DNA of 64,000 bases from Candidatus Saccharimonadota bacterium. GTDB taxonomy: Bacteria; Patescibacteriota; Saccharimonadia; Saccharimonadales; Saccharimonadaceae. Of the stretch, positions 1,572 to 32,175 are shown piece after piece. The stretch lies in contig JAFXKT010000002.1 of the NCBI GenBank assembly GCA_017531585.1, positions 70,203 to 134,202 of the forward strand, given 5' to 3'. How positions within the stretch are numbered: position 1 is the first letter of the stretch; the number at the start of each line of letters is the position of its first letter. The notes under the pieces are model-generated. The model was not told the origin of the DNA. It did not search any database and worked only from the letters and a program-made list of their open reading frames with translations. A program made the translations under genes and the position numbers.

Positions 1572-2250
1572 CTAAAGATAGACTTTTAGTTTTTCGACAA
1601 TGCTGCTTCTCGAGCCGTCTTTCTCGATAAAATCATGATCTAGGTCGAAATGCTCGATTTGAATTTCGTTTTTTAGCAGAGAATAATCTTTGTTGTTTGG
1701 GATAACGGTATCTCTTGCCGCGTCGAAAATAATTAATTTGGTCTTTGCACCTAGATTGTTGTATTTGTCGGGTAGGTCCGAGATATTGGCATAATCTTCC
1801 CAATAATCTGGCAAGAATAGAGTATAGTATCCGGCACTTCGTTTTCTTAGGATGCTGCCGTCTGGCTGTGGGGTAGATTTTTGATTTTCGAGAGTTATTC
1901 GCCTAGCCTCGTCTCCGCTTTCGTAGCCAATTACTGGGGCGAGCAAGATGGTAGTAGAAACATTCTCGAGCTGAGCAAGAGCGGCAATAATGCAGCCCTG
2001 TGAATGGCAAATAAGATTAATCTCGGCATTAGGATTTGCCTGTCTTAGCTCGGTATATTTTTGGCGAAGCTTTTGGGCTCGACTCGTAAAAGTTGCGGCA
2101 GTTGCCACGGTATTGTCCAGGTTCCAATCATCGTAAGAAAAAAAGCACATGTTCTACGCCTGGAAAGGCATCTATGATAGGGTTAAAAAGACCGTTGTCG
2201 TCGGCATGAGTGCCAAAACCATGGGAATAAAGAAAAATGCGCTTATTCAT
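1572..2250 (-). pseudogene. Alpha/beta-hydrolase (esterase/lipase-like, GxSxG = HSQGC) split by a frameshift in an A7/T7 homopolymer
   Basis: ORF 1572-2150 (MCFFSYDDW..., CHSQGC nucleophile elbow) lacks the N-terminal strand. A 40-codon ORF at 2250-2128 (MNKRIFLYSHGFGTHADDNGLFNPIIDAFPGVEHVLFFLR*) supplies it in another frame. The two frames meet at the A7 run 2138-2144. Removing one base gives ...EHVLFSYDDW..., a continuous 225-aa protein. Confidence 0.6.
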
Positions 2251-2379: not shown

Positions 2380-2496
2380 ATAATTCTTGCGAACTGTCCT
2401 TATTCTAGCAAGAAGTATTACGAATGTCAAACAAAAGTCGCAATAAAAATCGAATAAAAATTGTGATCAAAATGCTTATTTTAAACACGATGCTTA

Positions 2497-2505
2497 TGTT
2501 ATAAT
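2497..2505 (+). promoter_or_regulatory. Extended -10 promoter (TGTTATAAT) of the pilus/adhesin operon
   Basis: TGtTATAAT at 2497-2505, followed by SD AAGAGG and ATG 2528. Confidence 0.55.
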
Positions 2506-2527
2506 TAACCAAAAGAGGTATGTATAA

Positions 2528-5500
2528 ATGAGAGGCCATTTAAGGGGTAGGAAACCCCTAAAAAAGCTGTTTGCGTTTTTGGCTACTTTTTGCATGCTTT
2601 CTGGTGCTTTGGCTTTGGTGAATCTAATTAAGACTGAAGCCGCTGGGGAATACCATATAAACATCACGTCGAATGATACTTCGATGGGTGGTTTTGGTTA
2701 TGGCGGTGACTGTACTGGCACAATGTATGCAGACTATCGTGCGCAGGCAGACTATGATTATGAAAGGCCATTTCCGAATGGTGGGAATGTAATAACTGCC
2801 TGTCCTGCTTCTGGATATTATTTTGACCACTGGCTAGTAAATGGTCAGCGAGCTGGCACGAATCCAACTCAGGCGCAATTTTATAGTTGGTACTCAGATG
2901 TTGTTTACGATTCAAATAATGAGATAAACATCGAGGCGGTATTTATTGATGCCTTCAGTGTTGTTGCGAATGTTGACGCTGGAGTGGGTGGCACTATTCA
3001 GATGGGCTGGATTAATCCTTCTGACTATACTGCAGTACCGATTAATGGTACGGCAACTAATGAAATCACTTTTTCTGTTCCTGATACTGGAAATTCTGTT
3101 ACCACAGACACGATTACCGCGACGCCGGATCAAGGATATATGTTTGCGGGCGTGACTACTTCTGGGACAAATGTTGTCTATAATAATCTAGGAAATAATC
3201 AGTTTACGCTTACTATTAGTGGCGATGGTACGGCGACGGTTCTTTTTGCGCCTATAGCCTATACGGCAACTATCAATGCTGGTACTGGTACGGCTACGGT
3301 TCCGGTTCCTACTGACGCTAACTATACTGTTACAGATAATGGTACGAGCACTGTTTCTGTAACTTCTACGAGCACTAATGTTCAGGTTCCTGTTACGATT
3401 ACGCCAGCAGGCGGATATGAAGCAAACTCGGTTACGACTAGTGGCTCTGTTAGTTATAACAACGATCTTAGCAATAATGCATTTTCGTTTACTATTACTG
3501 GCGATGGCGGCCAAGTTACTGTAAACTATGCGGCTGTTAATACTGCTGAAATATATATATCGAATGGTACTTTGAATGCCTGGGGCAATGACATTACGCT
3601 AACGAACAATCAGACGGCGCACGTTACTGCGACTGCGAGAGGTACGCAGACACTTACAGTACAACCTTCGCCAAGTGGCGGGTATAGAGTTAATGCTGCA
3701 AATCCTGTCTCGACGACTGGTAGTGTTACGTATAACAATGACTATAATGGCAGTCAATTTACTCTCTCGATCGCTGGTGACGGTACTGCAACTGTAAACC
3801 TAGAACAAATTACCTATACCGCAACAATCAATGCTGGCGCTGGTACAGCTACGGTTCCGACAAGCACAAACTATACCGTTACAAATAGCGGCACAAGTAC
3901 CGTAACGGTTACTTCGACAAGTACTAACATTTCTGTTCCTGTTTCTATTACTCCGCCAAGCGGCAACGTAGTAGATTCTGTTTCGGTTACGGGTAGTGCT
4001 GGGTATAATGGTGATCTAAATGGAAATGATTTCTCCTTTACTATTACGGGTGATGGAGGTCAGGTTTCTGTGTCTTATGCTCCAGCATATGTTGTTTCTG
4101 TTGATGCTGGCAGTGGTACATCGGCGGTTTCTGGAAATAATATTACGATTTCAGATAATAATACTGGTCTCGTCGCGATTACGGCTACGGGTAGTAAGAG
4201 CGCAAATATTACAGTAACTCCGCCATCTGGCTATAGTGTTGATTCTTCGAACCCAGTAACTGTAACTGGCGATGTTAGCTATTCGAACTACAATAATAAT
4301 TCCTTCACTATAAACATGACTGGAGCTGGTACGGTGACGGTAAACTATACTGGGCCATACAATGTTCTATTGGATGCTGGTTCTGGCACGGTTTCTGTTG
4401 CTAGTGGAACTGGGTATACTGTCGCTAATAACAACACGAGTCTAGCCACGGTTACTACGTCCGGTAATACTACTACGGGTACCATTACAGTAACTGCGCC
4501 AAGTGGCTATATGCTAAGTCCTAGCAATCCAATTACTTCGACAAATGGCACTACTACGTATAGTAATCTTAGTGGCGATACTCTAACTCTATCGATGGCT
4601 GGCGCCGATACGGTAACCTTTAACTATATTAGTGGTAGTCCATATGTCACTTCGTTCGATGTATCTCCTTCTGCAGGCGGAACTCTAAAACAAGGCTGGA
4701 GCTGTAACGGTTCTACGATCTCTAGCTTGCCATATGTTAGTACTAATACTACGGCTTCTGTTATTTATCCAAGTGATGGTGCTTTGACGGCTTGCCCAGA
4801 AAGCGGCTATGTCTTGGCCGGTTGGAGAATTAGCGGAGACAATATTACTACCTTTGATATTACATCCGGTAATAATCTAGCTTCCTTTCATCAATGGATT
4901 GGCGGCTCTAATGTCTATGATCGCATGTTCGCAAACGATACGCATAATGTTACCGTTACGGCGATGTTTGTTTCAGATCCAGCATATTCTGTAACCTTTG
5001 TTTCTGATGATTCTAGTCATGGTACGGTCAAAATCTCTTCTGGCTCGAACTATACTGCAAATCCAGACGGTACTGCGGCTGCAAGCGTGGTTGTAAGTTC
5101 TGATGGCCAAAGCGGCGACCTTAATGTTGCGCGTGTTGATGGCGTGCCTGCTTCCGGCTACTTCCTTCAGTCATTTACATCGGCAAATAACACTGAGCAG
5201 CAAACCGTTAGCTCCTGGCAGGAACTTAATAATGTTGGCAATGCCTACGGCTTCACTCTTACGGGTGCTGATACGATTACTGCGCATTTTGCTCAGTTTA
5301 CGGATATTGTTTACGAAGTTAGCGTTAATCTTCCATCGGTAGGCTCGATCGATATTCAAAATACCGACTGTAGTACAAGTACAAATCAGACCTTTACGAA
5401 GACCTTGATAGATAACGGTAGCTACTTCCAGCCGGCGCTCGATACGAACGGCCACGATCTAACCGCTTGTGTAGATAATGGTAACTACTACTTTAGTCAC

Positions 5501-7111
5501 TGGGTGATTGATGGCTGGATGAATATTTCCCAGAACGCAACTATCGATGAGGTTGGTTATTGGCCAAAGAATACTAATAATCACACTCTTCAGGCGGTCT
5601 TTGCGCCAAAGGCTACAGTTACGGTTATGCCTGACGATTCTTCGCACGGCTCAGTCTCTGTTCCGAGCGGCGCTGGCTATACGGTAACTACGAGTGGTAA
5701 TAATACTATTATCGAAACGGCTGCCGGCATGAATAAGACTACGGGAACTATAAATCTATCGCCAGCAAACGGTTACGTCTTCTCGTACTTTGAGGTTATG
5801 GACGGTAATGTAACTGTCAATCGTGGCTCTGGTAACAACGATTATACACTTACGATCGACGGTAACGACACGGTGATTGCGCACTTTGAGCCAGCAACAA
5901 ATGTAGTAGTAGATGACAATAGTCATGGCTATATTGCTTATTGGGATAGATATGCTAATCACGGGCAGGGCGCTGAAGTTCATCTAACTAACAATGAGCA
6001 ATATCTTGCTTCTTCTTCGGTCGTAAACGACGCAAGATATATTACAGGTGCAACTGGTGACTTCTGGGCAATGCCACGCAGTGGATATACCTTTGACCAC
6101 TGGGATTTGAACGGTACAACTGTTACTACGGCCGAACGCGGCGTGGTTCGCTCTGGAGATATCGAGTATCAGGCGGGTAGTAGCGGTAATCTTCCGACCC
6201 TTACTGCAAACTTCCGCGAGTATAGCCTCTATCATGTCTTTACTGGCTATAACGATGCGCATGGCTTCTTTGATCATTATCTTCCAGAGACGCAACGCAC
6301 TGGCGGCAATGGCGCACAGGCTGGTGATTATGACCTAGATGACAATCCGTTCCCTCAGGGCGCAACCGCGAAACGTTCTAGCGATACGCATGCGACTGCA
6401 CCAAACGGCTACTACTTCGCTTATTGGATTACGGGCTGCAACTCGAGCTTCATGGCAAGTGAGCAGGTCGAGACGTCTCCGGGCAATTATATAGATATGA
6501 ACGTGCTTGGAAATGAGACTATTATGACCCGCGATACATACTTCCGCCCAACGACCGAGCAGTTCAATGAATGTAGCGAATATGTTGCAGTTTGGTATCG
6601 CGTAAACCAGCAGCGCCTAATTGCAAGTTCAGAAAACGAATCAATTGGTACAGTTCAAACAAGTACCGATACTGGTTCGCCAAACCTTGGACTTTGTGGG
6701 CGTACGGCTGCCGGCACGAGTAGATTGATGCGTACAGTTGCAAACATGGGTGTCTATGATACGGCGAACGGCCTAAGTATTGATTGTTATCCAACTACGG
6801 TTATTACGAATCCGTCCTACGAAGTTGACCACTGGGAGCTAAACGGCAAAACCTTGTACGAGAATGGTAATATCGTGAGATCGGAGCAAATTCGAAAACG
6901 CGTCTATACTCAATCTGATGGCTCGGCACTGTACATTAAAGGTGATTCGTTGAACGACCTTATCGTATACTTCCGCCTCAAAGAGTTGCCACATACAGGC
7001 TCAATCGCAATCTGGTTTATTGTGGGCGGCGGCGTCGCGGCAGTCGCGGTCCCATCGGTAATACTATTAATAAGCGAACGAAAAGAACAAAAGAAAGGAG
7101 GTAAAAAATGA
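2528..7111 (+). CDS. Giant LPXTG-anchored surface protein built from InlB-B-repeat-like / Ig-like modules (candidate pilus tip adhesin)
   Basis: 1527 aa. N-terminal signal peptide (KKLFAFLATFCMLSGALALVNL). Repeated GY(Y/T/V)F(D/A/S)HW..NG motifs typical of B-repeat domains. C-terminal sorting signal LPHTG (6986-7000), then a hydrophobic stretch and ERKEQKKGGKK. Confidence 0.85.
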   Translation: MRGHLRGRKPLKKLFAFLATFCMLSGALALVNLIKTEAAGEYHINITSNDTSMGGFGYGGDCTGTMYADYRAQADYDYERPFPNGGNVITACPASGYYFDHWLVNGQRAGTNPTQAQFYSWYSDVVYDSNNEINIEAVFIDAFSVVANVDAGVGGTIQMGWINPSDYTAVPINGTATNEITFSVPDTGNSVTTDTITATPDQGYMFAGVTTSGTNVVYNNLGNNQFTLTISGDGTATVLFAPIAYTATINAGTGTATVPVPTDANYTVTDNGTSTVSVTSTSTNVQVPVTITPAGGYEANSVTTSGSVSYNNDLSNNAFSFTITGDGGQVTVNYAAVNTAEIYISNGTLNAWGNDITLTNNQTAHVTATARGTQTLTVQPSPSGGYRVNAANPVSTTGSVTYNNDYNGSQFTLSIAGDGTATVNLEQITYTATINAGAGTATVPTSTNYTVTNSGTSTVTVTSTSTNISVPVSITPPSGNVVDSVSVTGSAGYNGDLNGNDFSFTITGDGGQVSVSYAPAYVVSVDAGSGTSAVSGNNITISDNNTGLVAITATGSKSANITVTPPSGYSVDSSNPVTVTGDVSYSNYNNNSFTINMTGAGTVTVNYTGPYNVLLDAGSGTVSVASGTGYTVANNNTSLATVTTSGNTTTGTITVTAPSGYMLSPSNPITSTNGTTTYSNLSGDTLTLSMAGADTVTFNYISGSPYVTSFDVSPSAGGTLKQGWSCNGSTISSLPYVSTNTTASVIYPSDGALTACPESGYVLAGWRISGDNITTFDITSGNNLASFHQWIGGSNVYDRMFANDTHNVTVTAMFVSDPAYSVTFVSDDSSHGTVKISSGSNYTANPDGTAAASVVVSSDGQSGDLNVARVDGVPASGYFLQSFTSANNTEQQTVSSWQELNNVGNAYGFTLTGADTITAHFAQFTDIVYEVSVNLPSVGSIDIQNTDCSTSTNQTFTKTLIDNGSYFQPALDTNGHDLTACVDNGNYYFSHWVIDGWMNISQNATIDEVGYWPKNTNNHTLQAVFAPKATVTVMPDDSSHGSVSVPSGAGYTVTTSGNNTIIETAAGMNKTTGTINLSPANGYVFSYFEVMDGNVTVNRGSGNNDYTLTIDGNDTVIAHFEPATNVVVDDNSHGYIAYWDRYANHGQGAEVHLTNNEQYLASSSVVNDARYITGATGDFWAMPRSGYTFDHWDLNGTTVTTAERGVVRSGDIEYQAGSSGNLPTLTANFREYSLYHVFTGYNDAHGFFDHYLPETQRTGGNGAQAGDYDLDDNPFPQGATAKRSSDTHATAPNGYYFAYWITGCNSSFMASEQVETSPGNYIDMNVLGNETIMTRDTYFRPTTEQFNECSEYVAVWYRVNQQRLIASSENESIGTVQTSTDTGSPNLGLCGRTAAGTSRLMRTVANMGVYDTANGLSIDCYPTTVITNPSYEVDHWELNGKTLYENGNIVRSEQIRKRVYTQSDGSALYIKGDSLNDLIVYFRLKELPHTGSIAIWFIVGGGVAAVAVPSVILLISERKEQKKGGKK
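2954..4627 (+). repeat. Six tandem diverged modules of about 93 aa (about 280 nt) inside the giant LPHTG protein
   Basis: Recurring pattern xxVxxDAGxGT..V....YTV......T.VT......ITVTPPSGY.V....PV..TG.V.Y.N....FT....G.GTVTVNY. YTATINAG starts at about 3259 and about 3814, so two modules per 555 nt. Nucleotide identity is about 70% by eye. Confidence 0.75.
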
Positions 7112-7749
7112 AACGGCTGATAGCATTATTCGCTTTCCTTTCGACAATGTTGGCTAGCACGGGCTGCTATGCGGAAGCCGGCAATATTCATGGAACATAT
7201 GCCTATGACGGAGAGAATATTGACGGCGTAACGGTAGAACTTTACAAAATTGCAGATTATGACGGTGAAAGGTTTAACTTTGAACCGCCATATCTGGGTC
7301 ATGAAGTAGATATTGGATCAATGACAAATTCCGAACTCGGTGAATACGGCCAAGAATTAGCGGAGGTCGAAGCTGAGCCTACCTCTTCTCGGCAAACGAC
7401 GGATGGAAGCTATTACTTTGGCGATATAAGAGAAGGGATTTGGCTTGTAACTTTTAAAGATATAACGATTGGAGATTATACATACTCAGCTTTGCCAATC
7501 GTATTAACGATGCCGGACCTAAATAAAAGCTACCAACTCGAACTTACGGTCAAGATCGAGAAGAGCTGTCCGGACTGTGAGCCTGAGCCGGAACCGGAGC
7601 CAGTTCCGCCAGATGAAGACAACTCGAATACGAGAGATAAGATTTGGTTCTATATCAGATTATTAATAGTATTGATTATTATTGAAACGCTTACGCTTTT
7701 TGTTATAATTAAAGATAAGGAAAAGAAGGGTCAAAATGAAGAAAAATAA
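7108..7749 (+). CDS. Small Cna-B/prealbumin-like surface protein with acidic PE-linker and C-terminal TM anchor (candidate minor/basal pilin, no canonical LPXTG)
   Basis: 213 aa. ATGA start/stop overlap with the upstream gene and SD GGAGG. Signal peptide MKRLIALFAFLSTMLASTGCYA. GVTVELYKIADYDG...DGSYYFGDIREGIWLV resembles Cna-B/SpaA-fold repeats. The tail is PEPEPEPVPPDEDNSNTRD, then a TM segment and KDKEKK. Confidence 0.65.
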   Translation: MKRLIALFAFLSTMLASTGCYAEAGNIHGTYAYDGENIDGVTVELYKIADYDGERFNFEPPYLGHEVDIGSMTNSELGEYGQELAEVEAEPTSSRQTTDGSYYFGDIREGIWLVTFKDITIGDYTYSALPIVLTMPDLNKSYQLELTVKIEKSCPDCEPEPEPEPVPPDEDNSNTRDKIWFYIRLLIVLIIIETLTLFVIIKDKEKKGQNEEK

Positions 7750-9283
7750 AGTATTAGCAGCCATCGGCGCAGCTGCTGCGTCTGCGGTAATCATGGGTGG
7801 TGGCGTAAATGCGGCGCCTGTGACGATTACTACTGACGCCAACGGCGTTGTGACGAATACTGATACTATTCAGGTAAGCAATGTTACAAAATCTGGCGAT
7901 GCTTTTAAGGCTTGTAAAATCGTTGATGTAAAATATGATTCCACATCGAATGTCATTAGCTATGAGTTTACATCTGCTTTTAATGCTGTAAAGAGTAGCT
8001 TATCTTCGGAATTCCAAAGCATTACGATTGCAGACTATATGGGCAATGATTATGCTTCTGGTACAGCTTCCGGTAGTGCGGTTACTGGCAACACGAAGAT
8101 TGATAAACTTGCTGGCGAACTTGCATCTAACTCTACCTTCGTATCTAACTGTACGAACATGACTACTGGTAGCACATCGCCTTATGCTGCTACGGCTAAT
8201 GTTGCCTGGGGTGGCTACTTAATTATTCCGCAGGGTAACAGCTCTGAAATGACTGATGCTTATGGCGCGATGATTGCAAATCTTACTGCTCAGACGGATG
8301 GTAGCGGTTATAACGTAGATACAACACATGCAACCGTGAGCGCCAAAAAGAGTGCGGCTGGCTCTGTTCAGAAAACAACTAATAATACGGATGGCTCTTC
8401 TGACAATAGCTTTGCGATCAATGAGACATTCCGATATGTTGTCACGGCTGTATATCCAACCTACCCATCAAACGCTACGAATAAGAAGTTTATTGTAACG
8501 GATACTCCAGAATCTGGTATTACCCTAGATGATGTTGCTTCAATTGTGGCCGGTGGTACTGCACTTACGATAGATGGTAATAATATTAAGAACGGCGCAA
8601 ATACTGTCGGTACTATCTCGAACAGTAACGGTACAATTACCTTTACCTTTAACGACGTGAGTGCTCTTGGCGGCAATAATAACAATATCGTTATTACCTA
8701 TAATGCTCATTTGAATTCAAATGCTACACTTGGTGATGCAACTGGCGCAAATAGCGTAAACGAAAACTCTGTAACGATTAAGACTCCACAGAATCCATAT
8801 GATGTAAATTCGTCTTGGGAAACAAGTGGCCCGGTAACTACGACAGTTTATACCTATGGCATTAAAATCACGAAGATTAAAGAAAATGACTCTGCGGTTC
8901 TGCTTCCTGGTGCAGAATTTAATCTTTGCCTAGTCGCGGACACTAACTGTTCTAATCCGCTCAATGGTAATACGCCAATTACGACTAATGCGAGCGGTGA
9001 GGCTACTTATGTCTCTGTCGGCAATGGCGAGTATTATCTAAAAGAGATCAAAGCTCCAGCAGGCTATCGTCTTGCAGCAAATACTAGCGTTACGATTACT
9101 GTTAATAGCGGTGCTCAGAATCTAGATAATGGCTACTTCGAGTATACAATCGAAGATCCAGAATCAATCTTCAATCTGCCATTCACTGGTGGTCGTGGCG
9201 TAGTCGTCTATGCAATCCTCGGCGTCGGAATTGTTGGTATTGCATCCGTCTTTTACTATCGCAAGAAAAAGCAACAAGCTTAA
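7736..9283 (+). CDS. LPXTG pilin-like protein (candidate major pilin) with E-box
   Basis: 515 aa with a 14-nt overlap with the upstream gene. Signal peptide. C-terminal Cna-B-like domain with E-box YYLKEIKAPAGY (consensus YxLxExxAPxGY). Sorting signal LPFTG (9176-9190), then a hydrophobic stretch and YYRKKKQQA. Confidence 0.85.
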   Translation: MKKNKVLAAIGAAAASAVIMGGGVNAAPVTITTDANGVVTNTDTIQVSNVTKSGDAFKACKIVDVKYDSTSNVISYEFTSAFNAVKSSLSSEFQSITIADYMGNDYASGTASGSAVTGNTKIDKLAGELASNSTFVSNCTNMTTGSTSPYAATANVAWGGYLIIPQGNSSEMTDAYGAMIANLTAQTDGSGYNVDTTHATVSAKKSAAGSVQKTTNNTDGSSDNSFAINETFRYVVTAVYPTYPSNATNKKFIVTDTPESGITLDDVASIVAGGTALTIDGNNIKNGANTVGTISNSNGTITFTFNDVSALGGNNNNIVITYNAHLNSNATLGDATGANSVNENSVTIKTPQNPYDVNSSWETSGPVTTTVYTYGIKITKIKENDSAVLLPGAEFNLCLVADTNCSNPLNGNTPITTNASGEATYVSVGNGEYYLKEIKAPAGYRLAANTSVTITVNSGAQNLDNGYFEYTIEDPESIFNLPFTGGRGVVVYAILGVGIVGIASVFYYRKKKQQA

Positions 9284-9296
9284 TCAATAATCAAGA

Positions 9297-9321
9297 GTCG
9301 CGGCTACGGTCGCGGCTTTTT
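9297..9321 (+). terminator. Intrinsic terminator after the pilin gene (first of two)
   Basis: GTCGCG/CGCGGC 6-bp GC-rich stem with an 8-nt loop, followed by TTTTT. Confidence 0.55.
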
Positions 9322-9356
9322 GTTGGGCGATATAATATTAGCATTCGAGAGAAAAA

Positions 9357-9377
9357 GCGCACTATGTGCGCATTTTT
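9357..9377 (+). terminator. Second hairpin/terminator between pilin and sortase genes
   Basis: GCGCAC-TAT-GTGCGC hairpin followed by ATTTTT. Confidence 0.5.
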
Positions 9378-9403
9378 CAGAGAATGCGCCATATTAGACC
9401 GAA

Positions 9404-9412
9404 TGGTATAAT
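9404..9412 (+). promoter_or_regulatory. Extended -10 promoter (TGGTATAAT) of the sortase gene
   Basis: TGgTATAAT ends at 9412. The ATG at 9413 abuts it. The second in-frame ATG (9419) lies exactly 6 nt downstream, which is the leaderless geometry. Confidence 0.55.
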
Positions 9413-10249
9413 ATGCTTATGAAAAGATTGGCGTCTATCAAAAACCGTTTGACGACGATTATTTTTGTCGTGTCGGTCACGATCGGTATTTTACTAATAG
9501 TCGCACCCTTGGTTGTTGGCGCAATTAATCAGTCTCGCGCGAATGGCGTAATTCAGTCTTATCAGAATAATGTAGGTCAGACCGAGAATAGAAATGATGA
9601 GCAATTTGCGCTTGCAGATAAGTATAACCAGGCGATTTCTGGGGGCATTGGGGATAGCGAAATATTAAAACAATATAACGACATTCTAAATGTCGAAAAT
9701 GGTGTGATGGGGTATATTGAGATCCCTCGTATTGGTATTCGCAATCCTATATATCACACGGTTGAAGAAGATGCCTTACAAAAAGGTATTGGCCACATGC
9801 AAAATACTTCGTTTCCGGTTGGTGGTTCTGGCACACATGCCGCCCTGTCTGGGCATCGTGGCCTCCCGATGAGTAAGTTATTTACGGATCTTGATCAGGT
9901 TAAGGAAGGGGATATTATCCTAATTAAAATCCTCAATCGTACGCTTGCATACAAAGTCTATAAAATAGAAGTGGTCGAGCCGACGCACGAAGGAGGTTTG
10001 GCGGTTGTTCCGGATAAAGATTTGCTGACTCTTGTCACTTGTACGCCTTATGCGATTAATTCCCATCGGTTGCTGGTCCATGCGGAACGTACGGAATATG
10101 TCGAGGAAATGGCAGAGATTAAGACCGAATTTACGATTTCCGAATCCCAACGAATTCTCTTGATTGCACTCGGTGTTGTTGCTATGATCTTAGCTCTAGA
10201 TATTGTCGTAATTCTAAAACGTCGCAAACGCGAACGCGCGGCGGATTAA
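9413..10249 (+). CDS. srtC: Class C (pilin-polymerising) sortase
   Basis: TLVTCTPYAINSHRLLVHAER catalytic TLxTC motif and HAALSGHRG His region. It has both an N-terminal TM and a C-terminal TM followed by KRRKRER, the class C hallmark. The true start is probably ATG 9419 (MKRLASIK...). Confidence 0.85.
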   Translation: MLMKRLASIKNRLTTIIFVVSVTIGILLIVAPLVVGAINQSRANGVIQSYQNNVGQTENRNDEQFALADKYNQAISGGIGDSEILKQYNDILNVENGVMGYIEIPRIGIRNPIYHTVEEDALQKGIGHMQNTSFPVGGSGTHAALSGHRGLPMSKLFTDLDQVKEGDIILIKILNRTLAYKVYKIEVVEPTHEGGLAVVPDKDLLTLVTCTPYAINSHRLLVHAERTEYVEEMAEIKTEFTISESQRILLIALGVVAMILALDIVVILKRRKRERAAD

Positions 10250-11271
10250 GGCTTATCCCAGTCGAAGCCTTCGCCAAAATGACCATATTCGGCGGTCTTG
10301 GCATAGATTGGACGAAGCAGGTCTAACTTTTGGATTATTCCGCGCGGACTCAAATCGTAGTCTTCTGGTGGTATTATGACTGGCTTGCCATCTACAATAG
10401 CCGTACGTTCAAGTGCTTCGCTAAAGCCGATGGCATAGGCTAGGCGAACAAACACTTCATGAGCTTTGTATTTGCGCAAGTAATCTACTGCGATTTTTCT
10501 TGCAATATAGGCTGCCGATCGGTCGACCTTGCTCGGGTCTTTGCCAGAGAATGCTCCGCCGCCAATTGGGATGCTTGGCCCATAGTTATCTACAGCGAGT
10601 TTTCGCCCAGTTAAACCAGCATCGGCATCGAATCCGCCAATCGTCCAGTCGCCACAAGGGTTAAGATGGTATTCGATATCTTCGGACTGAAAGAATTCGC
10701 TCGCTAACCTTTTGAGTTCTGCCTGGCTGGCGTTTTGAAAGCTCGCCACAACCTTAACTACTTTATCTCCGTCCAAGGTGACCTGGGTTTTGCCGTCAAA
10801 AGGGAACTTGCTATAGATAAATTGGTTGAATCTGCGCGCTAAAACAACTTCTTTTGGTAATAGTTCAGGTGTCTCGTCATTAGCGTAACCAATCATGATG
10901 CCTTGGTCGCCAGCGCCGCCAGTATCGACACCTCGTGCAATTTCTGGACTCTGTTCCTTGATATTAATAATAATCCTTATCTTATTTCCGATAATACTGC
11001 GGATTATTCCCTCGATTTCAGCCTTGCTGATTTTTGTGGTAGAAGAAATTTCGCCAGTGGCAAAGAATTGGCTATGACCGCCAGCGCAATCTACTGCTAC
11101 GCGAGCATAAGGGTCACGGGCAAGATAAGTATCAAGGATTGAATCGGAAACACGATCGCAGAGCTTATCTGGATGTTTCGGAGAGACGGATTCTGCCGTG
11201 CGCAAAAAGCCAGGCGTGGAATTAGCAATTGATAAAGATTTGAGCGCAACGCGCTTTGAAGATTTTGACAT
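10246..11271 (-). CDS. metK: S-adenosylmethionine synthetase, compact 341-aa form
   Basis: HPDKLCDRVSD, GAGDQGIMIGYA, GGGAFSGKDPSKVDRSAAY and TAEYGHFG motifs. Preceded by a SAM riboswitch. Confidence 0.9.
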   Translation of the reverse strand: MSKSSKRVALKSLSIANSTPGFLRTAESVSPKHPDKLCDRVSDSILDTYLARDPYARVAVDCAGGHSQFFATGEISSTTKISKAEIEGIIRSIIGNKIRIIINIKEQSPEIARGVDTGGAGDQGIMIGYANDETPELLPKEVVLARRFNQFIYSKFPFDGKTQVTLDGDKVVKVVASFQNASQAELKRLASEFFQSEDIEYHLNPCGDWTIGGFDADAGLTGRKLAVDNYGPSIPIGGGAFSGKDPSKVDRSAAYIARKIAVDYLRKYKAHEVFVRLAYAIGFSEALERTAIVDGKPVIIPPEDYDLSPRGIIQKLDLLRPIYAKTAEYGHFGEGFDWDKP

Positions 11272-11365
11272 ATCTTTCCTTTCTTGGCTGGAATTACCAC
11301 CTTGCTCGAAGAGTAGGTTGGTAGCAGGTCAAAGGGCCAGTCCCTCGCTGCTTCTTGATATTAGT
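11272..11365 (-). promoter_or_regulatory. SAM-I-clan riboswitch (S-box) in the metK 5' UTR
   Basis: Minus-strand RNA: AUAUCAAGAAGCAGCGAGGGACUGGCCCUUUGACCUGCUACCAACCUACUCUUCGAGCAAGGUGGUAAUUCCAGCCAAGAAAGGAAAGAUAUG. It contains the conserved GAGGGAnUGGCCC, CAACC and GGUGnUAAUUCCAGC blocks. The P1 strands are AUAUC...GAUAU. Confidence 0.8.
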
Positions 11366-11483: not shown

Positions 11484-11801
11484 TCATAGGATTGTAGGGA
11501 TGCCGTGCTGATCGAAACGGAACTTTATGGTTCTTGTCTCGAGTTTGACTGAGTAGACTTTTGACCTCCGATAGAAAGGAATCATGCTATGGATACGATT
11601 ATAAGAATTAATCGCATTACTGAATTCTTTTCTGGCGGCGGCGAGAGCGTCTTTTGCTTCGGCGACCCGACGACGCCTTTCCTGCAAGGCGATGGCGTCT
11701 GTCTTGGGCAAGTTTTTAGCCTTGCGTTCAATAGCCTCGAATCTCTCTTCGAGTTGCAAGACTTTTTTGTAAAGCTCTGCTAGTCTGTCAGTGGTCATCA
11801 T
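11484..11801 (-). CDS. Hypothetical small coiled-coil protein
   Basis: 105-aa ORF with SD AAGGAGG 9 nt upstream of ATGATG and its own terminator. No recognisable family. Confidence 0.6.
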   Translation of the reverse strand: MMTTDRLAELYKKVLQLEERFEAIERKAKNLPKTDAIALQERRRRVAEAKDALAAARKEFSNAINSYNRIHSMIPFYRRSKVYSVKLETRTIKFRFDQHGIPTIL

Positions 11802-26388: not shown

Positions 26389-29300
26389 GTGAGAGATAAT
26401 ATAAAAAAGTTTTTGGGATTATTTTTATGTACTGTTCTCGCTTTGGGTGGATTTTCGAACGTTTTTGCTTCGTCTAATGTTTTGCATATAAGCTCGGTTG
26501 AGATTACGAGTAAAAGTGCAGGTGTGGAAGCGGAGACTCCAAGCATCGAAAATGACCATGTCCAAGGCGACGTTGTTTTTAATGCTCAGGGTGATCATAT
26601 TGAATACCTCTTTGCGATTGAAAACACGGACGATTATGCGTATAGAATCGACAGCATAACAGATAACAACTCGACAGAAAAGCTGGCGATCACTTATTCG
26701 CACGGCGAAAAAATCGAGGCCAAGAGCACGGTTAGCTTTACGATGCTCATGGAGTATTCTGAGCAGCTCGTGAACCAGGAAAAACTGGATCTTAGTGACC
26801 TGCAAATCAAGATCCGCTTCACGCGCATTGGCGGCTCTGAAGACGAAGAAAAAGAAGAAGACATTGATGTAAACCCAGATACTGAGTCTTCAAGCGTTAC
26901 GAACGTTGTGGCTAATGGCGCACTTGCGTCTTCGGCCGTTATTTTGGTTATCGTCTTCGCTCTTCACGGCACGCTACCAAAGCAGCTCAGGTATGCTGGT
27001 ATTGGTACTGCTTTGCTTCTTGCTGGTAGCGCGATTAGCCTAAACATTGCAAGCGCAGCGCAGAGCGAAGAGATTGATGTTTGGTTCTCGAATATTGAAC
27101 TAGTCGGCATCTTTGAAAACTATACGGTTACTATTGATACTGGTAATGGCCCAGTCGAGCATCATTACGATTATGGCACGCCACTTTCAGAAATTCTTAG
27201 CCGCCCAAGCAAGACTGGCTACCACTTCGACAAGTGGGTCGACGGCGATGGCAACACTATCGATGAAAACGGTACGATTACTGGCCCAATCGATATTGTG
27301 GCTGTCATGGAGGCTAATAAATATCATGTGGTCTTTGATGCGAACGGCGGAACCGGTTCGATGGACAGTCAAGAGTTTACTTATGATGAGGCCGCAAAGA
27401 AACTAAGCAAGAATACCTTTGAGCGCCCTGGATATAACTTTGCTGGCTGGGCAACTACTGCTATTGGCCGCGCAAAAGCTTATGATGACGAGGAAGAGGT
27501 TCGGAACCTAGTCGATACAACTGAAGATGTAAATCTTTATGCAACGTGGACTAAACTTACGGATATTGCTTACACCGTTAAGCATCGTTATGCGGATCTA
27601 ACGGGTGGCTATGATGAAGTTGAAAGAGAAGAGGCTGGTCCAGTTGACGAGGATGTTTATCCGCCAGTTCTAGAACGCGATGGCTTCAATGATCCAGCAA
27701 CAATCGCGCCGATTCGTATTAATCCTGATGGTAGTACGGTTGTTGTCCTTGAGTATTCTCGCAAGAGCTATGCTTTCGCATATGGCGATTCTGAATATAT
27801 TGATACGAACGAATCGACGAGTGCTGGAGATTATGCATTTGAAACGCCAATTACAGCAAAAGCCAAGAATCGCGACGGCTACCAGTTTACCGGTTGGTCT
27901 GATGGCTCAAATATTGTATCGACTAATAATCCATATACTTTCGATTTGCCGCTTGATGGCATCACACTAACTCCTACTTATGAAGCTAATACTTATCATG
28001 TCGCCTTCCACGCTAACGGTGGTACTGGCGATATGGCCAAGCAAGAGTTTACTTTTGACGATGAATCGAAGGCGCTAAGCAAGAATCTCTTTGAACGCCC
28101 TGGATATAGCTTTGCTGGCTGGGCAACGAGCGCTGACGACGAGGTTGTCTATGCGGACAAAGCAGAGGTTAGAAATCTAACGGATGGCACCGAAGATGTC
28201 GATCTATATGCAAAGTGGACAGCGAATACTTATAGTGTTGTATTTCACGCCAATGAAGGTACCGGTTCAATGGATGACCAGACATTTGCGTACGACGAGG
28301 CTCCAAAGGCACTAGCTAAGAATACTTTCGAGCGTGTTGGTTATAGCTTTGCTGGCTGGGCAAAGACTGCCGCAGGTGAAGTTGAGTATACGGACGAACA
28401 GGAGGTTCAGAATCTAATTCAAACTGCTGGAACTGTTGATCTTTACGCAAAGTGGACTGCAAATACTTACTACGCACACTTCCATGCGAATGGTGGTGAC
28501 GGCTCGATGGATGATCAATCATTTACTTATGGCGAAGCTGCTAAGGCTTTGGCCGCCAACACCTTTACTCGTGCTGGCTACAGCTTTGCTGGTTGGGCAA
28601 CGACAGCTGGTGGCGAGGTTGAATATGCAGATGGTGCTTCGGTTCAGAACTTAACCAGCGATATTGATCTTTATGCTAAATGGACAGCTAATACTTATCG
28701 TGTTATCTTCCATTCTAATGACGGCAATGATTCGACGGAAAGCCAGGAATTTGTATTTGATGAGGCTGCAAAGGCGCTCAGGGCTAATAGTTTCTCTCGC
28801 GAGGGTTACAGCTTCGCTGGTTGGGCGGAGAGCGCTAGCGGTGAAGTAGTTTATACCGACGAAGCTCAGGTTCAGAATCTAACCACAACTACAAACGATG
28901 TAGATCTTTACGCAAAGTGGACTGCAAATACTTATTATGTAACTTTCCATGCCAATAACGGCGCTGGTTCGATGGAAAATCAGCCATTTACCTACGGCGA
29001 AGCTGCTAAGGCTTTGATGGCCAATGCCTTTACTTGTACTGGTTACAGCTTCGCTGGCTGGGCAGAGAGTGATAGCGGTGAAGTAGTTTATGCCGACGAA
29101 GCTCAGGTTCAGAACCTAACTAGCGATATTGATCTTTACGCCAAATGGGTAGCAAATACATATACGGTTGTCTTCCATTCCAATGAAGGCTCAGGTCTAA
29201 CTGAAAGCCAAGAATTTACTTACGATGAAGGCCCAAAGGCTCTAAGAAAGAATACCTTTACTTATGCTGGTTATAGCTTCGCTGGCTGGGCGGAGAGCGC

Positions 29301-32175
29301 TAGTGGTCAAGTCGTCTATGATGATGAAGAAGAAATCGAGAATCTTGTAGAGACTACCGAAGATGTAAATCTCTATGCAAAATGGGAAGCACGAACGGAT
29401 ATTCCTTATCTCGTTATTCATCACTACGAAAAGCTGATAGAGGGCTACGACGATGTAGAAGATCCTCGCGAAGATGGTAGGGTAGACCAAGATGTTCAGC
29501 TCCCAATACAGCACGTTGATGGCTTTGTGGATCCTGCTATTCGCACGGTTCCGATTGCTGCTGATGGCACAACAGTCGAACATTATTACTATCTCCGTGA
29601 ACGAGTAGGCTTTACGCTAAATGATCCAGATAACCATGTAACAACCGAAACTGGTACTGGTGAATATAAGTATGGCGCAACTATTTCCTTGGTTGCCGAG
29701 GATGTTCCGGGCTACGGCTTTACGGGCTGGTCCGACGGCCAAAGTATCGTCTCGACTAATGCAAGCTACAGCTTTGAAATTACTACGGACGTTACCTTGA
29801 CGCCATCCTATGTGGCAAACACCTACAATGTAATCTTTAACGCTAACGGCGGTATTGGTTCGATGGATGCTCAGGCATTTACGTATGATGCACAAGCTAC
29901 GGCTCTAACTGCAAATACCTTCACGCGCGCAGGCTATATCTTTGCCGGTTGGGCGACAAATCCAAATGGTGAGATTGTCTATAGAGATGAGCAGCAGGTT
30001 CAAAACCTAACTACGACTACTGACGACTTTAATCTTTATGCTAAGTGGGCTTTGCGTACGGATATTAAATATACAGTTCATCACCGCTACGAAAATGTTG
30101 GGTCTGGCTTTACTGAAGTTAATACGACAGAGTATGGCTCGGTGGATACAGATATTACTCCTCCAACTGCGCCAGAAGCTGGCTTCGGTGATCCTGTTGC
30201 GGATGCCTCTACTCCAGTGCCTACCCACATTTCGGCTAACGGAACTTCGGAGGTAATCTATAACTACTATCGCCTCTATAAGAACCTTACGATAGTTGAT
30301 GGTGCGGATGTATCGGGAGCTACGTCGGGCAGTTATAAATACGGTACGCAATTTGAGCTAACTGCTGCTAATCGTCAAGGATACGAGTTTGCCGGCTGGA
30401 CTATAGATGGCGGCGAAAGTATTATTTCTACAAACAAAACCTACGGCTTCGTATTGACGGACAACGTTACGATTCAACCTGTATATGACGAGGCGCAGTT
30501 CTATGACGTCTTTAGGCATGACGGTGCTTGTGTGTTTGACGGTAATGGCAATGTGACCGGTGATGACTGTGGCGATAATCCTGGCTATATCAATACGAAC
30601 GTTAAGCTCTATGATGCGGCGAACTATGAAGGCGACTACGAAATTGGTTTTACGATTGATGCTCTCGGCAGTACTCAAGTCAATCAGGCGACCATTGTAA
30701 ACTCGAAGCTCGAGAGTAACTCTGCTAACTATCCTGGTGTTGCGGCAAGAAAGGTTAGTAATGGAAACGATATCGAGATTACGCAGAGGATAAATGGTGG
30801 AAATCCTGGCGGAAGCCCTACGAACAAAACTGCATGGGCTGCTCCTAAGACAATCAAGATTATTCGCTATAAGAATGTTGTTTATACTCAGGTAGGCAAT
30901 GAAACGCCAAAGAGGCTTCAGTCAATGGCTGGGACGAGCAATTATCATGACATTCCGGTTTGGTTTGGTGCGACTTATGTTCCTCCGAGCGGAGGCAATG
31001 AGGGGTATGCGGATCGTCTCTTTAACGGAACCCTCTCTCATATGTATATTAAACAGGGTGAATATGACGGCGCAACGGTAACAATGACCTTTGACATGAA
31101 CGGCGATACTGGTACCGCGCCTGATCCTATTTCGGTGCTGAGCGGCACGGCGATTGCTACTCTACCCGATGAAGTAGATAGTGGTAGTGATCAGGTCTTC
31201 ATGGGTTGGTATAGGGATAAGGACATCTGGCTTGATCGTGTAACTAAGAATGATGCCTTGACGCAAGACGTTACGGTCTATGCGCGCTGGGCTAGCTCGG
31301 CAGATGTCTGTTTGGTTAAAGATGTGGTTGGGCAAAATGATGAGATTAGCGATGTAACAAAAACCAAGCTTAAAGATTGTGTTGATATCATTAATAATAA
31401 TGCGGACATGCCTTCTGGTGAGATTGTAATTCTACACGACATTAATCCGGCGACGGAAGCTGGAGGAAATAACGATATACGTATTAGTTCTGGTAAAGAC
31501 ATTACTATAACCGGTGACGGATACAGACTAACAGCAAACTCGTCTCAGCCAATCTTTAGAAACGATAGAGGTGGTACCTTGCGGCTTGACAATATAAAAA
31601 TGAATACTAAGGCAGGTCAAGCTATAGTTAATAATGAGGCTTATAACGGAATAAGTTCTAACCTTTATGTAAATAGCTGCGAGTTTAACGTCGGAGACAA
31701 TAGCTCGAAGGGTACTGTCAAGCAGGCAATCTATAACGTGGGTAGCGCCGTGGAGATTACAGGCAATACCGTGATTGAGAGTTATTCAACTATAAGGGCG
31801 GCCATAACTAGCGATGGCGGTTCAGTGCACATTAAAAGCGCGACAGTTACTGCGCATAATATATCGACTATAGTTGTTTCGAATAATGCTTCTATAACTA
31901 TCGGTGTCGATGACGGCACGGTTAGGAACGATAGTCCGATCATAATTTCAGATAAGAACTATGCGGTTTCTGGTAGAGTAGGAATAAACTTCTATGATGG
32001 AACGCTGATTGCTAAAGGTAGCAATAGTAACCATTCACCTCTCGATAATGGGTCTACTACGACTGCGACTGTTGCGGATTATCCTGCTGGTACTGTCCCG
32101 ATGACGACCCCATGGACAACGGATTACGACAATACCTACTACTGGCTGTATTATGGCACCAGTAGTGGGCCGTAA
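26389..32175 (+). CDS. Giant secreted/surface protein with Listeria-Bacteroides (Flg_new) repeats, MucBP-like modules, a LamG/ConA-like lectin region and a C-terminal beta-helix-like region
   Basis: 1928 aa with a GTG start. Signal peptide MRDNIKKFLGLFLCTVLALGGFSNVFA. Nine copies of Y.V.F.ANGG.GSM..Q.F.Y......L..N.F.R.GY.FAGWA.......Y.D...V.NL.....DLYAKW. Three TDI.Y.V.H.Y modules. FNGTLSHMYIKQG lectin-like segment. The C-terminal ITITGDGYRLTAN.../NNEAYNG... region has beta-helix character. There is no C-terminal LPXTG. Confidence 0.85.
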   Translation: MRDNIKKFLGLFLCTVLALGGFSNVFASSNVLHISSVEITSKSAGVEAETPSIENDHVQGDVVFNAQGDHIEYLFAIENTDDYAYRIDSITDNNSTEKLAITYSHGEKIEAKSTVSFTMLMEYSEQLVNQEKLDLSDLQIKIRFTRIGGSEDEEKEEDIDVNPDTESSSVTNVVANGALASSAVILVIVFALHGTLPKQLRYAGIGTALLLAGSAISLNIASAAQSEEIDVWFSNIELVGIFENYTVTIDTGNGPVEHHYDYGTPLSEILSRPSKTGYHFDKWVDGDGNTIDENGTITGPIDIVAVMEANKYHVVFDANGGTGSMDSQEFTYDEAAKKLSKNTFERPGYNFAGWATTAIGRAKAYDDEEEVRNLVDTTEDVNLYATWTKLTDIAYTVKHRYADLTGGYDEVEREEAGPVDEDVYPPVLERDGFNDPATIAPIRINPDGSTVVVLEYSRKSYAFAYGDSEYIDTNESTSAGDYAFETPITAKAKNRDGYQFTGWSDGSNIVSTNNPYTFDLPLDGITLTPTYEANTYHVAFHANGGTGDMAKQEFTFDDESKALSKNLFERPGYSFAGWATSADDEVVYADKAEVRNLTDGTEDVDLYAKWTANTYSVVFHANEGTGSMDDQTFAYDEAPKALAKNTFERVGYSFAGWAKTAAGEVEYTDEQEVQNLIQTAGTVDLYAKWTANTYYAHFHANGGDGSMDDQSFTYGEAAKALAANTFTRAGYSFAGWATTAGGEVEYADGASVQNLTSDIDLYAKWTANTYRVIFHSNDGNDSTESQEFVFDEAAKALRANSFSREGYSFAGWAESASGEVVYTDEAQVQNLTTTTNDVDLYAKWTANTYYVTFHANNGAGSMENQPFTYGEAAKALMANAFTCTGYSFAGWAESDSGEVVYADEAQVQNLTSDIDLYAKWVANTYTVVFHSNEGSGLTESQEFTYDEGPKALRKNTFTYAGYSFAGWAESASGQVVYDDEEEIENLVETTEDVNLYAKWEARTDIPYLVIHHYEKLIEGYDDVEDPREDGRVDQDVQLPIQHVDGFVDPAIRTVPIAADGTTVEHYYYLRERVGFTLNDPDNHVTTETGTGEYKYGATISLVAEDVPGYGFTGWSDGQSIVSTNASYSFEITTDVTLTPSYVANTYNVIFNANGGIGSMDAQAFTYDAQATALTANTFTRAGYIFAGWATNPNGEIVYRDEQQVQNLTTTTDDFNLYAKWALRTDIKYTVHHRYENVGSGFTEVNTTEYGSVDTDITPPTAPEAGFGDPVADASTPVPTHISANGTSEVIYNYYRLYKNLTIVDGADVSGATSGSYKYGTQFELTAANRQGYEFAGWTIDGGESIISTNKTYGFVLTDNVTIQPVYDEAQFYDVFRHDGACVFDGNGNVTGDDCGDNPGYINTNVKLYDAANYEGDYEIGFTIDALGSTQVNQATIVNSKLESNSANYPGVAARKVSNGNDIEITQRINGGNPGGSPTNKTAWAAPKTIKIIRYKNVVYTQVGNETPKRLQSMAGTSNYHDIPVWFGATYVPPSGGNEGYADRLFNGTLSHMYIKQGEYDGATVTMTFDMNGDTGTAPDPISVLSGTAIATLPDEVDSGSDQVFMGWYRDKDIWLDRVTKNDALTQDVTVYARWASSADVCLVKDVVGQNDEISDVTKTKLKDCVDIINNNADMPSGEIVILHDINPATEAGGNNDIRISSGKDITITGDGYRLTANSSQPIFRNDRGGTLRLDNIKMNTKAGQAIVNNEAYNGISSNLYVNSCEFNVGDNSSKGTVKQAIYNVGSAVEITGNTVIESYSTIRAAITSDGGSVHIKSATVTAHNISTIVVSNNASITIGVDDGTVRNDSPIIISDKNYAVSGRVGINFYDGTLIAKGSNSNHSPLDNGSTTTATVADYPAGTVPMTTPWTTDYDNTYYWLYYGTSSGP
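27988..29395 (+). repeat. Six consecutive Flg_new (Listeria-Bacteroides) repeats of 228-237 nt
   Basis: Repeat starts (AATACnTAT...) at about 27988, 28225, 28462, 28690, 28926 and 29154. Isolated extra copies at about 27304, 29815 and 31078. Sub-blocks reach about 91% nucleotide identity (28804-28884 vs 29041-29121, 7 mismatches in 81). Confidence 0.85.

Follow-up and report, generated by a model that had tools for sequence, protein, structure and literature searches.

A probable streamlined Spa/Fim-type covalent pilus locus with a membrane-rooted fibre in a Nanosyncoccaceae Saccharibacterium

The DNA analysed here is a stretch of 64,000 nucleotides (nt) from contig JAFXKT010000002.1 of a Candidatus Saccharimonadota bacterium, hereafter called the window. 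It carries a four-gene locus on the forward strand which probably encodes a covalent, sortase-assembled pilus. The open reading frames (ORFs) are gene 1 (2528-7111, 1527 amino acids (aa)), the presumptive tip adhesin; gene 2 (7108-7749, 213 aa), a predicted single-domain basal or terminator pilin; gene 3 (7736-9283, 515 aa), a major (shaft) pilin of the SpaH/EbpB family; and gene 4 (9413-10249, 278 aa), a class C sortase with a conserved start at 9419. All four are as described in an earlier reading of the same sequence (the initial annotation). Both overlaps which it reported can be read in the sequence, namely an ATGA shared by genes 1 and 2 at 7108-7111 and 14 nt shared by genes 2 and 3 at 7736-7749. 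It had also suspected an epibiotic host with a reduced genome. In agreement with this, the same locus was found in two species-representative metagenome-assembled genomes of Candidatus Nanosyncoccaceae, a family placed within Candidatus Saccharimonadota (Saccharibacteria/TM7), with pilin identities of 96% and 75%. The exact gene 3 protein is also present on other contigs of up to 947 kb. Further comparison revealed seven independent Saccharibacteria-like loci with this gene order (giant protein, protein of ~212 aa, pilin of ~515 aa, sortase). They span 37-96% pilin identity, and all four ORFs are intact in each. Recent transfer of the operon was considered, but no sign of it was seen since the operon and the rest of the window have the same G+C content (0.43-0.45).

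Gene 3 is classified as a SpaH/EbpB-type major pilin, closest to CppA of C. perfringens. It scores 103.7 bits against NF033902, the curated NCBIfam model for SpaH/EbpB major pilins (cutoff 95), 55 bits against TIGR04226, the isopeptide-forming D2 domain (cutoff 30), and 50.2 bits against Pfam SpaA. The closest solved relatives are PDB 5xcc and 9vo4 (expectation value (E) = 2e-15 over residues 141-460), of which 5xcc is entered in the PDB as CppA, a pili protein from C. perfringens. At NCBI, a protein identical to gene 3 already bears the label of a SpaH/EbpB major pilin of Candidatus Saccharibacteria bacterium. Together with the linking lysine and the triads described below, these matches uphold the proposal of the initial annotation that the 515-aa protein is the major subunit.

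Residue conservation in gene 3 was examined in an alignment of 34 homologs. K204 (nt 8345-8347) is invariant in all 34 and aligns with the lysine of the INPKDN motif of CppA, which identifies it as the predicted pilin-motif lysine. Its context is ATVSAKKS, and it is thus true, as had been remarked earlier, that the major subunit has no classical YPKN motif. The nearest candidate named at that time, AVYPTYPSNATNKK, was rejected. It is the conserved VPxYPxNATNK start of domain D2, where the lysines vary. For the D2 triad (K213/D256/N344) each residue is kept in 24 to 33 of the 34 homologs. The D3 triad (K380/E437/D474) is present as K-E-(N/D) in 23 homologs, has lost all three residues in 10 and is mixed in one. 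It is therefore kept or lost as a unit in 33/34, the pattern expected of a real isopeptide bond, which would be Lys380-Asp474 with Glu437 as the catalytic residue. The E-box (YYLKEIKAPAGY, aa 433-444) and the LPFTG sorting signal from aa 481 were both found where the initial annotation had seen them. LPFTGG (aa 481-486, nt 9176-9193) is invariant, is followed by a transmembrane (TM) segment and an RKKKQQA tail, and matches TIGR01167 at 22.6 bits (cutoff 15.9). An arginine has been gained directly after this motif (GGRG).

The assignment of gene 4 to the class C sortases, proposed in the initial annotation from its architecture, was borne out, and classes A, D and E were not. Gene 4 matches the NCBIfam class C model NF033745 at 230.1 bits (cutoff 160), and scores against the models of classes D, E and GN were 33-81 bits, each below its own cutoff. 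The top 21 PDB matches are all class C enzymes (E = 1e-51 to 1e-32), with class A at ~1e-11. In the numbering of the 278-aa ORF, the catalytic residues H148 (GHRGL), C210 (in the TLVTC motif noted before) and R219 (SHRLLV) align with those of solved class C enzymes. Hydrophobic segments are present at both ends, as had been described; counted from the ATG at 9419, they span aa 9-39 (the N-terminal TM anchor) and aa 242-268 (the C-terminal TM segment). Identity to the class C sortases of syntenic Firmicutes operons is 43-44%. A 10-aa deletion in the lid is common to all six Saccharibacterial sortases and removes the VDAF of the Firmicutes orthologs. The best PDB match, 8gr6, is also without DPW in the aligned stretch, and gene 4 might still have a short, non-canonical lid. 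The C-terminal TM helix contains Asp263 (nt 10199-10201), which is found in all Saccharibacterial copies and is absent from the Firmicutes enzymes.

Gene 2 belongs to a group that the curated databases do not cover. The window protein has no Pfam or NCBIfam family match, and no LPXTG motif was found in the whole protein. An exhaustive profile search returned 921 cluster representatives, many of them full-length at 210-250 aa, of which few are close relatives (>50% identity). Alignments and an AlphaFold2 (AF2) model place a signal peptide and then a D1-like pilin domain (aa 25-153) at the start of the protein. They are followed by a CPDC (CxxC) motif (aa 154-157, nt 7567-7578), a PEPEPEPVPP linker, the hexapeptide NSNTRD (aa 172-177, nt 7621-7638), which the alignment marks as a decayed signal, a TM helix (aa 179-204) containing Glu193 (nt 7684-7686), and a basic tail. 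The model (predicted local distance difference test (pLDDT) 75.6) consists of a beta-sandwich with one helix, a disordered linker and the TM helix. With this model as a Foldseek query, the best matches were the pilins SpaD, EbpB (a basal pilin), the D1-D2 domains of CppA, and GBS52; SpaB was also found. The family profile in turn finds the N-terminal D1 domain of SpaD (E = 4e-10), a C. perfringens pilin, Spa2 and SpaA. Lys149 (nt 7552-7554) is the one lysine that is invariant across the family, and it falls on the pilin-motif lysine of these pilins (…VAYPK, …TINPK, …HVYPK). K47 was considered as an isopeptide or linking lysine and was rejected since it is unconserved in the wider family. Gene 2 is thus modelled as a single D1-like pilin domain with a pilin-motif lysine. 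The predicted pilin fold and the lysine are in favour of the initial reading, but the protein is not a minor pilin of the LPXTG type. A D1 domain with a nucleophile lysine and nothing more fits the needs of a chain-terminating basal pilin.

Gene 2 could instead be an assembly accessory outside the fibre, for example a membrane-tethered chaperone or a sortase decoy. Its membrane tether, the lack of LPXTG and the lack of a curated family would suit such a role. Moreover, gene 2 lies between the genes for tip and shaft, and in this it is reminiscent of SipA, which is encoded within S. pyogenes pilus operons. However, the fold is that of a pilin D1 domain and not of a signal peptidase, and the invariant lysine sits on the nucleophile position of the pilin motif. 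An accessory role is thus regarded as quite improbable. As to the CPDC motif, it is nearly invariant in the Saccharibacterial clade and occurs in one outgroup protein (P0117); it may serve as a disulfide staple or in redox chemistry. DsbA-like thioredoxin genes lie near the operon in two of the loci (L007 and L010). Glu193 of gene 2 and Asp263 of the sortase are both acidic residues within a TM helix, conserved in all Saccharibacterial copies and absent in the Firmicutes homologs. Purely as a speculation, these residues and the arginine of GGRG may reflect intramembrane recognition.

The ancestry of the gene 2 C-terminus can be followed in three Firmicutes loci (L008, L009 and L012), which lie in genomes with SpoVA and sporulation sigma genes and whose pilins are 31-36% identical to gene 3. 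Here the order is a vWFA protein, an LPNTG protein with Flg_new_2 and SpaA domains (682-698 aa), a gene 2 homolog (217-227 aa, pairwise E = 1e-18), a pilin of ~500 aa and two sortases. The first of these belongs to class C and the second to class B (TIGR03064, 154-191 bits, cutoff 153.75), and the gene 2 homolog adjoins the class C and class B sortases in all three of these loci. In one Firmicutes locus that lacks a gene 2 homolog, two class C sortases are encoded and none of class B. It is known that class B sortases use non-LPXTG signals. The Firmicutes gene 2 homologs end in [VIS]PxTxD followed by a TM helix and a basic tail. The Saccharibacterial copies have NSNTRD at this point, and nearly all have lost the proline of the motif. 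Thr175 is kept without exception, Asn174 and Asp177 with few exceptions. These copies have also gained the CPDC motif, the PEPEPEP linker and an invariant glutamate inside the TM helix. From this we infer that [VIS]PxTxD serves a D1-only basal-pilin family as its class B signal, and that its decay in Saccharibacteria is tied to the loss of the enzyme. The family (L008, L009, L012; P0117-P0213) is widespread in Firmicutes; its members measure 210-250 aa and close with [VIS]PxTxD, a TM helix and a basic tail. At each of the three loci inspected, its gene is placed between the tip and shaft pilin genes, and no dedicated model for it was found in Pfam or NCBIfam.

Given this ancestry, gene 2 might still be a conventional basal pilin which is cut behind Thr175 and joined to the peptidoglycan by the class C enzyme or by a sortase encoded elsewhere. 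Its C-terminus is tripartite (motif, TM helix, basic tail) and retains Thr175 and, nearly always, its neighbours Asn174 and Asp177. Further, non-canonical signals are common in pilus proteins, as in the C. perfringens NE pilus, whose putative base pilin FimB has a sortase B signal (PMC8088525), and a sortase elsewhere in the genome is possible, the view being 64 kb. On the other side, the ancestral proline of PxTxD is gone in nearly all Saccharibacterial copies, the operon has no class B sortase, unlike the Firmicutes loci, and gene 2 matches no curated sorting-signal model. The invariant glutamate in the TM helix, found in Saccharibacterial copies only, moreover suggests a helix which is retained and interacts with a partner. 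A cleaved, wall-linked gene 2 is thus judged rather unlikely. Gene 2 is probably an uncleaved basal pilin retained in the membrane because its signal has decayed, LPXTG is absent and the operon encodes no class B sortase.

The layout that the operon has in common with the clostridial loci suggests an old transfer. In clostridial systems of the Cpp type (CppA, SrtC; PDB 5xcc, 6ixy, 6ixz, 9vo4) the major pilin is homologous to gene 3, and L008, L009 and L012 show the same succession of a B-repeat LPXTG protein, a D1-only pilin of ~215 aa, a pilin of ~500 aa and a class C sortase. Compared with these loci, the Saccharibacterial operon has neither a vWFA protein nor a class B sortase, and its first protein, longer by a factor of 1.6-2.2, is without the SpaA stalk. 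The gene 2 signal has decayed, CPDC and the TM glutamate were gained, and the sortase has the 10-aa lid deletion. So many losses (the vWFA gene, the class B sortase, the gene 2 proline, the lid motif and the tip's stalk domain) could also mark the operon as a relic which came from Firmicutes by transfer and is now decaying, with no structure made from it. This is highly improbable. Seven independent loci with 37-96% pilin identity have kept four intact ORFs. Conservation extends to the catalytic and linking residues, the two sorting signals and the regulatory elements, and a genome of <1 Mb is unlikely to retain 7.7 kb of dead genes.

Gene 1 begins with a signal peptide at about aa 1-38, as read from the ORF, and ends with LPHTG (aa 1487-1491, nt 6986-7000), a TM segment (aa 1490-1517) and the tail ERKEQKKGGKK; the LPHTG/TM/KKGGKK sorting signal of the initial annotation was thereby confirmed. 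A hidden Markov model (HMM) iterated on the protein resolved 14 modules of ~95 aa over aa 42-1471, or about 15 if gaps are included, with LPHTG following the last module immediately. No more than eight homologs were found, all of them giants of 1180-1536 aa. The nature of the modules is less clear than had been proposed. The assignment to InlB-B-repeats has some support from Pfam, where Flg_new_2 (PF18998) matches three stretches at 25.2 bits, just above the cutoff of 23.6, and it stays marginal. When the modules were compared by hhalign with the Flg_new repeats of the ORF at 26389-32175, a probability of 43% was obtained over 22 columns round GYxFxxW. BLASTP of gene 1 gave nothing significant against this second giant protein of the window or against the Firmicutes tip protein. 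The statement that the protein is several times larger than known tip pilins was overstated, as it is ~2.2 times the size of its positional counterpart in Firmicutes (682-698 aa).

Gene 1 diverges sharply between strains. Between the window and the sister strain L010, whose housekeeping genes are 92-99% identical, gene 1 is 45% identical, against 99% for LigA, 98% for a neighbouring hypothetical protein, 95% each for gene 2 and the sortase, and 85% for the pilin. By comparison, six loci agree in the signal peptide, the N-terminal ~60 residues and the sorting signal LP[HFY]TG[SA]…ERKEQKKGGKK. Conserved ends for export and anchoring, combined with a fast-changing passenger, agree with an exposed protein that serves in binding and is subject to diversifying selection or the exchange of alleles. 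This strain-level hypervariability is the one piece of indirect support for the host-attachment role which the initial annotation had proposed for the pilus.

Gene 1 need not be part of the fibre. It could be an independent, sortase-anchored fibrillar adhesin that is merely co-transcribed with a pilus made of genes 3 and 2. Three features speak for such an arrangement. Firstly, gene 1 has no pilin-like CnaB or SpaA stalk, and no CnaB, vWFA or thioester domain was found in it by Pfam or NCBIfam; the earlier remark that the presumptive tip is without vWFA or collagen-binding domains holds by the same searches. Secondly, the module fold matches nothing solved, and a module model built with the 14 internal repeats as the alignment (pLDDT 71) found no PDB match below E = 0.14. 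Thirdly, the conserved sorting signal (LPHTGS with the tail ERKEQKKGGKK) is of a type distinct from that of gene 3. However, gene 1 is translationally coupled to gene 2 through the ATGA overlap and is first in all seven Saccharibacteria-like loci. Moreover, the Firmicutes protein at this position has B-repeats together with a SpaA domain and LPNTG, a combination that a tip pilin would be expected to show, and the only sortase nearby is the pilus-type class C enzyme. An adhesin outside the pilus is accordingly considered unlikely, and the tip of the fibre stays the preferred position of gene 1.

Expression of the operon appears to be divided in two. Genes 1-3 follow the extended -10 element TGTTATAAT at 2497-2505, which the initial annotation had reported upstream of gene 1 and which is conserved in sister genomes. 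The block GCTTATGTTA(T/A)AAT is kept in five of six aligned loci (window, L004, L010, L005 and L011), and L007 has a partial match. This promoter has no -35 element, hence it was missed by a consensus promoter scan. A Shine-Dalgarno sequence, AGAGG, follows at 2514-2518, ahead of the ATG at 2528. After gene 3, RNA folding predicts a terminator or attenuator hairpin at 9293-9325, in which a 12-bp stem is followed by a T-run. The whole spacer (9284-9412) folds at -51 kcal/mol (z = -6.1), and none of 200 shuffles was as stable. L005, L007 and L013 retain the stem of this hairpin although its sequence differs, that is, by compensatory changes. The second of the two tandem hairpins described earlier, GCGCACTATGTGCGC (9357-9371), is also present, in a terminator scan as well as in the fold. 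It sits in an 82-nt insertion (9337-9418) which the alignment shows in the window and L004 only and which is absent from L010, L005, L007 and L013, so that the first hairpin alone is conserved across lineages. The second is perfect, GC-rich and flanked by T-runs on both sides, and is predicted to be terminator-like in both directions. The insertion duplicates the TATAATAT box; it was considered as a repeated mobile element, a reading rejected as the window holds no further copies.

The sortase has its own extended -10 element, TGGTATAAT, at 9404-9412, 6 nt upstream of the ATG at 9419. TATAAT, the 6-nt spacer and the ATG are conserved in the window, L004, L005, L007, L010 and L013, with the TG extension in five of these six, and no Shine-Dalgarno sequence was found before the ATG at 9419. 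Since the -10 box lies 6 nt from a conserved ATG without a Shine-Dalgarno sequence, a leaderless sortase mRNA is probable, with 9419 and not 9413 as its probable true start. The separate promotion read for the sortase at the outset agrees with these elements, although its conserved start codon is not the first of the ORF. Taken together, they suggest that transcription is attenuated behind the pilin genes and that the sortase has a leaderless transcript of its own.

From the gene identities, residues, synteny and divergence described above, a mechanism can be proposed in which the chemical steps, the tip position of gene 1, the retention of gene 2 and host attachment would be connected as follows. 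One promoter would give rise to three translationally coupled precursors (genes 1-3), each exported by Sec. The conserved attenuator hairpin after gene 3 would leave the sortase to its own, probably leaderless, transcript at a lower level. The class C sortase would cut gene 1 at LPHT|G and pass Thr1490 to Lys204 of gene 3, so that gene 1 comes to stand at the tip. Repeated cuts of gene 3 at LPFT|GG, with Thr484 joined to Lys204 of the next subunit, would then build the shaft, made up of three-domain subunits with internal Lys-Asn and Lys-Asp isopeptide bonds. Growth would stop when Lys149 of gene 2 takes the polymer. The finished fibre would be rooted in the cytoplasmic membrane through the TM helix of gene 2, because gene 2 has no LPXTG and the operon no second sortase, and the Pro/Glu-rich linker would span a thin wall. 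The hypervariable tip rod of ~15 modules would then be likely to bind the host bacterium, or another surface, and to give this binding its specificity.

That the locus is a streamlined Spa/Fim-type covalent pilus locus with a membrane-rooted fibre in a Nanosyncoccaceae Saccharibacterium is, on balance, likely. The initial annotation had read a Spa/Fim-type pilus here, and the computational tests which it named, on the class of the sortase and on the pilin fold and linking lysine of the 515-aa protein, all came out in its favour. Several points weigh against this reading. Besides the missing domains, the unmatched module fold and the distinct sorting signal of gene 1, no canonical lid motif D-P/A-[FWY] was found in the sequence of gene 4, and the C-termini of the gene 2 family all score below cutoff against TIGR03063 (srtB_target) and LPXTG_anchor. 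The link between class B sortases and PxTxD is a co-occurrence in three loci. No second sortase and no further LPXTG protein was found in the 64-kb window; the genome was viewed through this window, to which the count of sortases applies, and a housekeeping or class B sortase may be encoded elsewhere. Finally, the pilus is known here from its genes alone. A more far-reaching scenario can be drawn as well. In this, an acquired clostridial operon lost its class B sortase, and the basal pilin became an uncleaved membrane anchor with a CPDC motif and an intramembrane glutamate. A single class C sortase without a lid would now build a covalent pilus whose root is the membrane and not peptidoglycan, and a hypervariable repeat tip of 1100-1500 aa would set the host bacterium for each Nanosyncoccaceae strain. 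Taken with all its parts, this scenario is possible and is put forward tentatively.

Among known pili, the systems of C. diphtheriae (SpaA/SpaB/SpaC/SrtA) and L. rhamnosus GG (SpaCBA) comprise the same four roles of tip, base, shaft and class C sortase. The likeness extends to the pilin-motif lysine, the E-box, the CnaA/CnaB-type domains with isopeptide triads and the LPXTG signal. The present locus differs in that its pilin motif is A-K and not YPKN, its base pilin is without an LPXTG-type signal, its tip is without vWFA or thioester domains, no housekeeping sortase lies within the window, and the host is an epibiont of the candidate phyla radiation (CPR) and not a Gram-positive bacterium. 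Like the basal pilins FctB (S. pyogenes), GBS52, SpaB and EbpB, gene 2 is small and has an Ig-like pilin fold with a single acceptor lysine. FctB has a Pro-rich tail before its anchor, which the gene 2 linker resembles. A precedent for a base pilin with a non-class-A signal is FimB of the C. perfringens NE pilus (PMC8088525). Unlike FctB, GBS52, SpaB, EbpB and FimB, gene 2 consists of only a D1 domain as in major pilins, matches no curated sorting signal and is probably uncleaved.

So far, the way in which Saccharibacteria recognize and grip their hosts has been approached from two sides only. Type IV pili were made responsible for host contact (PMC11623550), and recently, in another lineage, so were Pam pili, which assemble by donor-strand exchange (bioRxiv 10.64898/2026.03.03.709456). 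With the predicted sortase pilus, all three would be filaments on the surface of epibiotic CPR bacteria for which a part in host contact is proposed or shown. The three have no sequence relationship, and sortase transpeptidation is covalent, while type IV pili and donor-strand exchange are non-covalent. Sortase pili are described in neither of these two papers. Sortases themselves are common in CPR bacteria (PMC6744442). A description of sortase-assembled pili in Saccharibacteria, Patescibacteria or Nanosyncoccus was not found in the literature, of which coverage was incomplete. Already known are the labels that automatic annotation gives to the pilin and the sortase, and the shaft pilin and sortase are themselves canonical. 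What is new, as predicted here, is a base pilin without LPXTG, a sortase without the lid motif, a tip without a known stalk or head, and the setting in a CPR epibiont.

The locus would thus represent a third filament system, chemically unlike the other two, in a major family associated with humans and animals. In one survey Nanosyncoccus made up ~18% of Saccharibacteria genomes (PMC11659515). The tip protein, sharply different between otherwise near-identical strains, is a candidate specificity determinant. A minimal system with one sortase and a base pilin without LPXTG could also show how a pilus is terminated and anchored without a housekeeping sortase. In addition, the comparison brought to light an uncurated family of D1-only pilins with a [VIS]PxTxD signal and a putative link to class B sortases.

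Several other features of the window were noted. The second giant secreted protein (26389-32175, forward strand, 1928 aa) has 10 Flg_new (Listeria-Bacteroides) repeats (Pfam, E = 3e-109) and 3 Flg_new_2 repeats (E = 3e-31). A signal peptide is present; LPXTG and a TM anchor are not, and gene 1 is not directly similar. This protein may be another adhesin. A multi-pass membrane protein of 692 aa (58698-60776, reverse strand) has no Pfam match; it was considered as an LPXTG protein and rejected, its C-terminus (SITGS) bearing merely a loose resemblance to a sorting signal. Upstream of the operon and on the opposite strand lies tRNA-Gly(GCC) (2303-2379). Its near-consensus promoter, TTGACA-17-TAGAAT with a TG extension (2402-2430, reverse strand), lies ~23 nt upstream of the tRNA gene and is divergent from the pilus promoter, and its TTGTCAAAC block is kept in sister loci. 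A 192-aa fragment of an alpha/beta-hydrolase (1572-2150, reverse strand), which weakly matches the Tle3 phospholipase effector domain of the type VI secretion system (T6SS) at 26.7 bits, slightly below the cutoff of 27, is also kept upstream of the operon in several loci. Downstream, a short metK (10246-11271, 341 aa) stands tail to tail with the sortase gene, its stop overlapping the sortase stop region, and is preceded by an S-adenosylmethionine (SAM, S-box) riboswitch (11267-11364, reverse strand). Beyond it lies a gene for a 105-aa protein without a family (11484-11801, reverse strand). This protein is 93% identical in L010 and 50% identical in L004, where its neighbours are at 93-98%, and is identified by this pattern as a second locally hypervariable gene near the operon.

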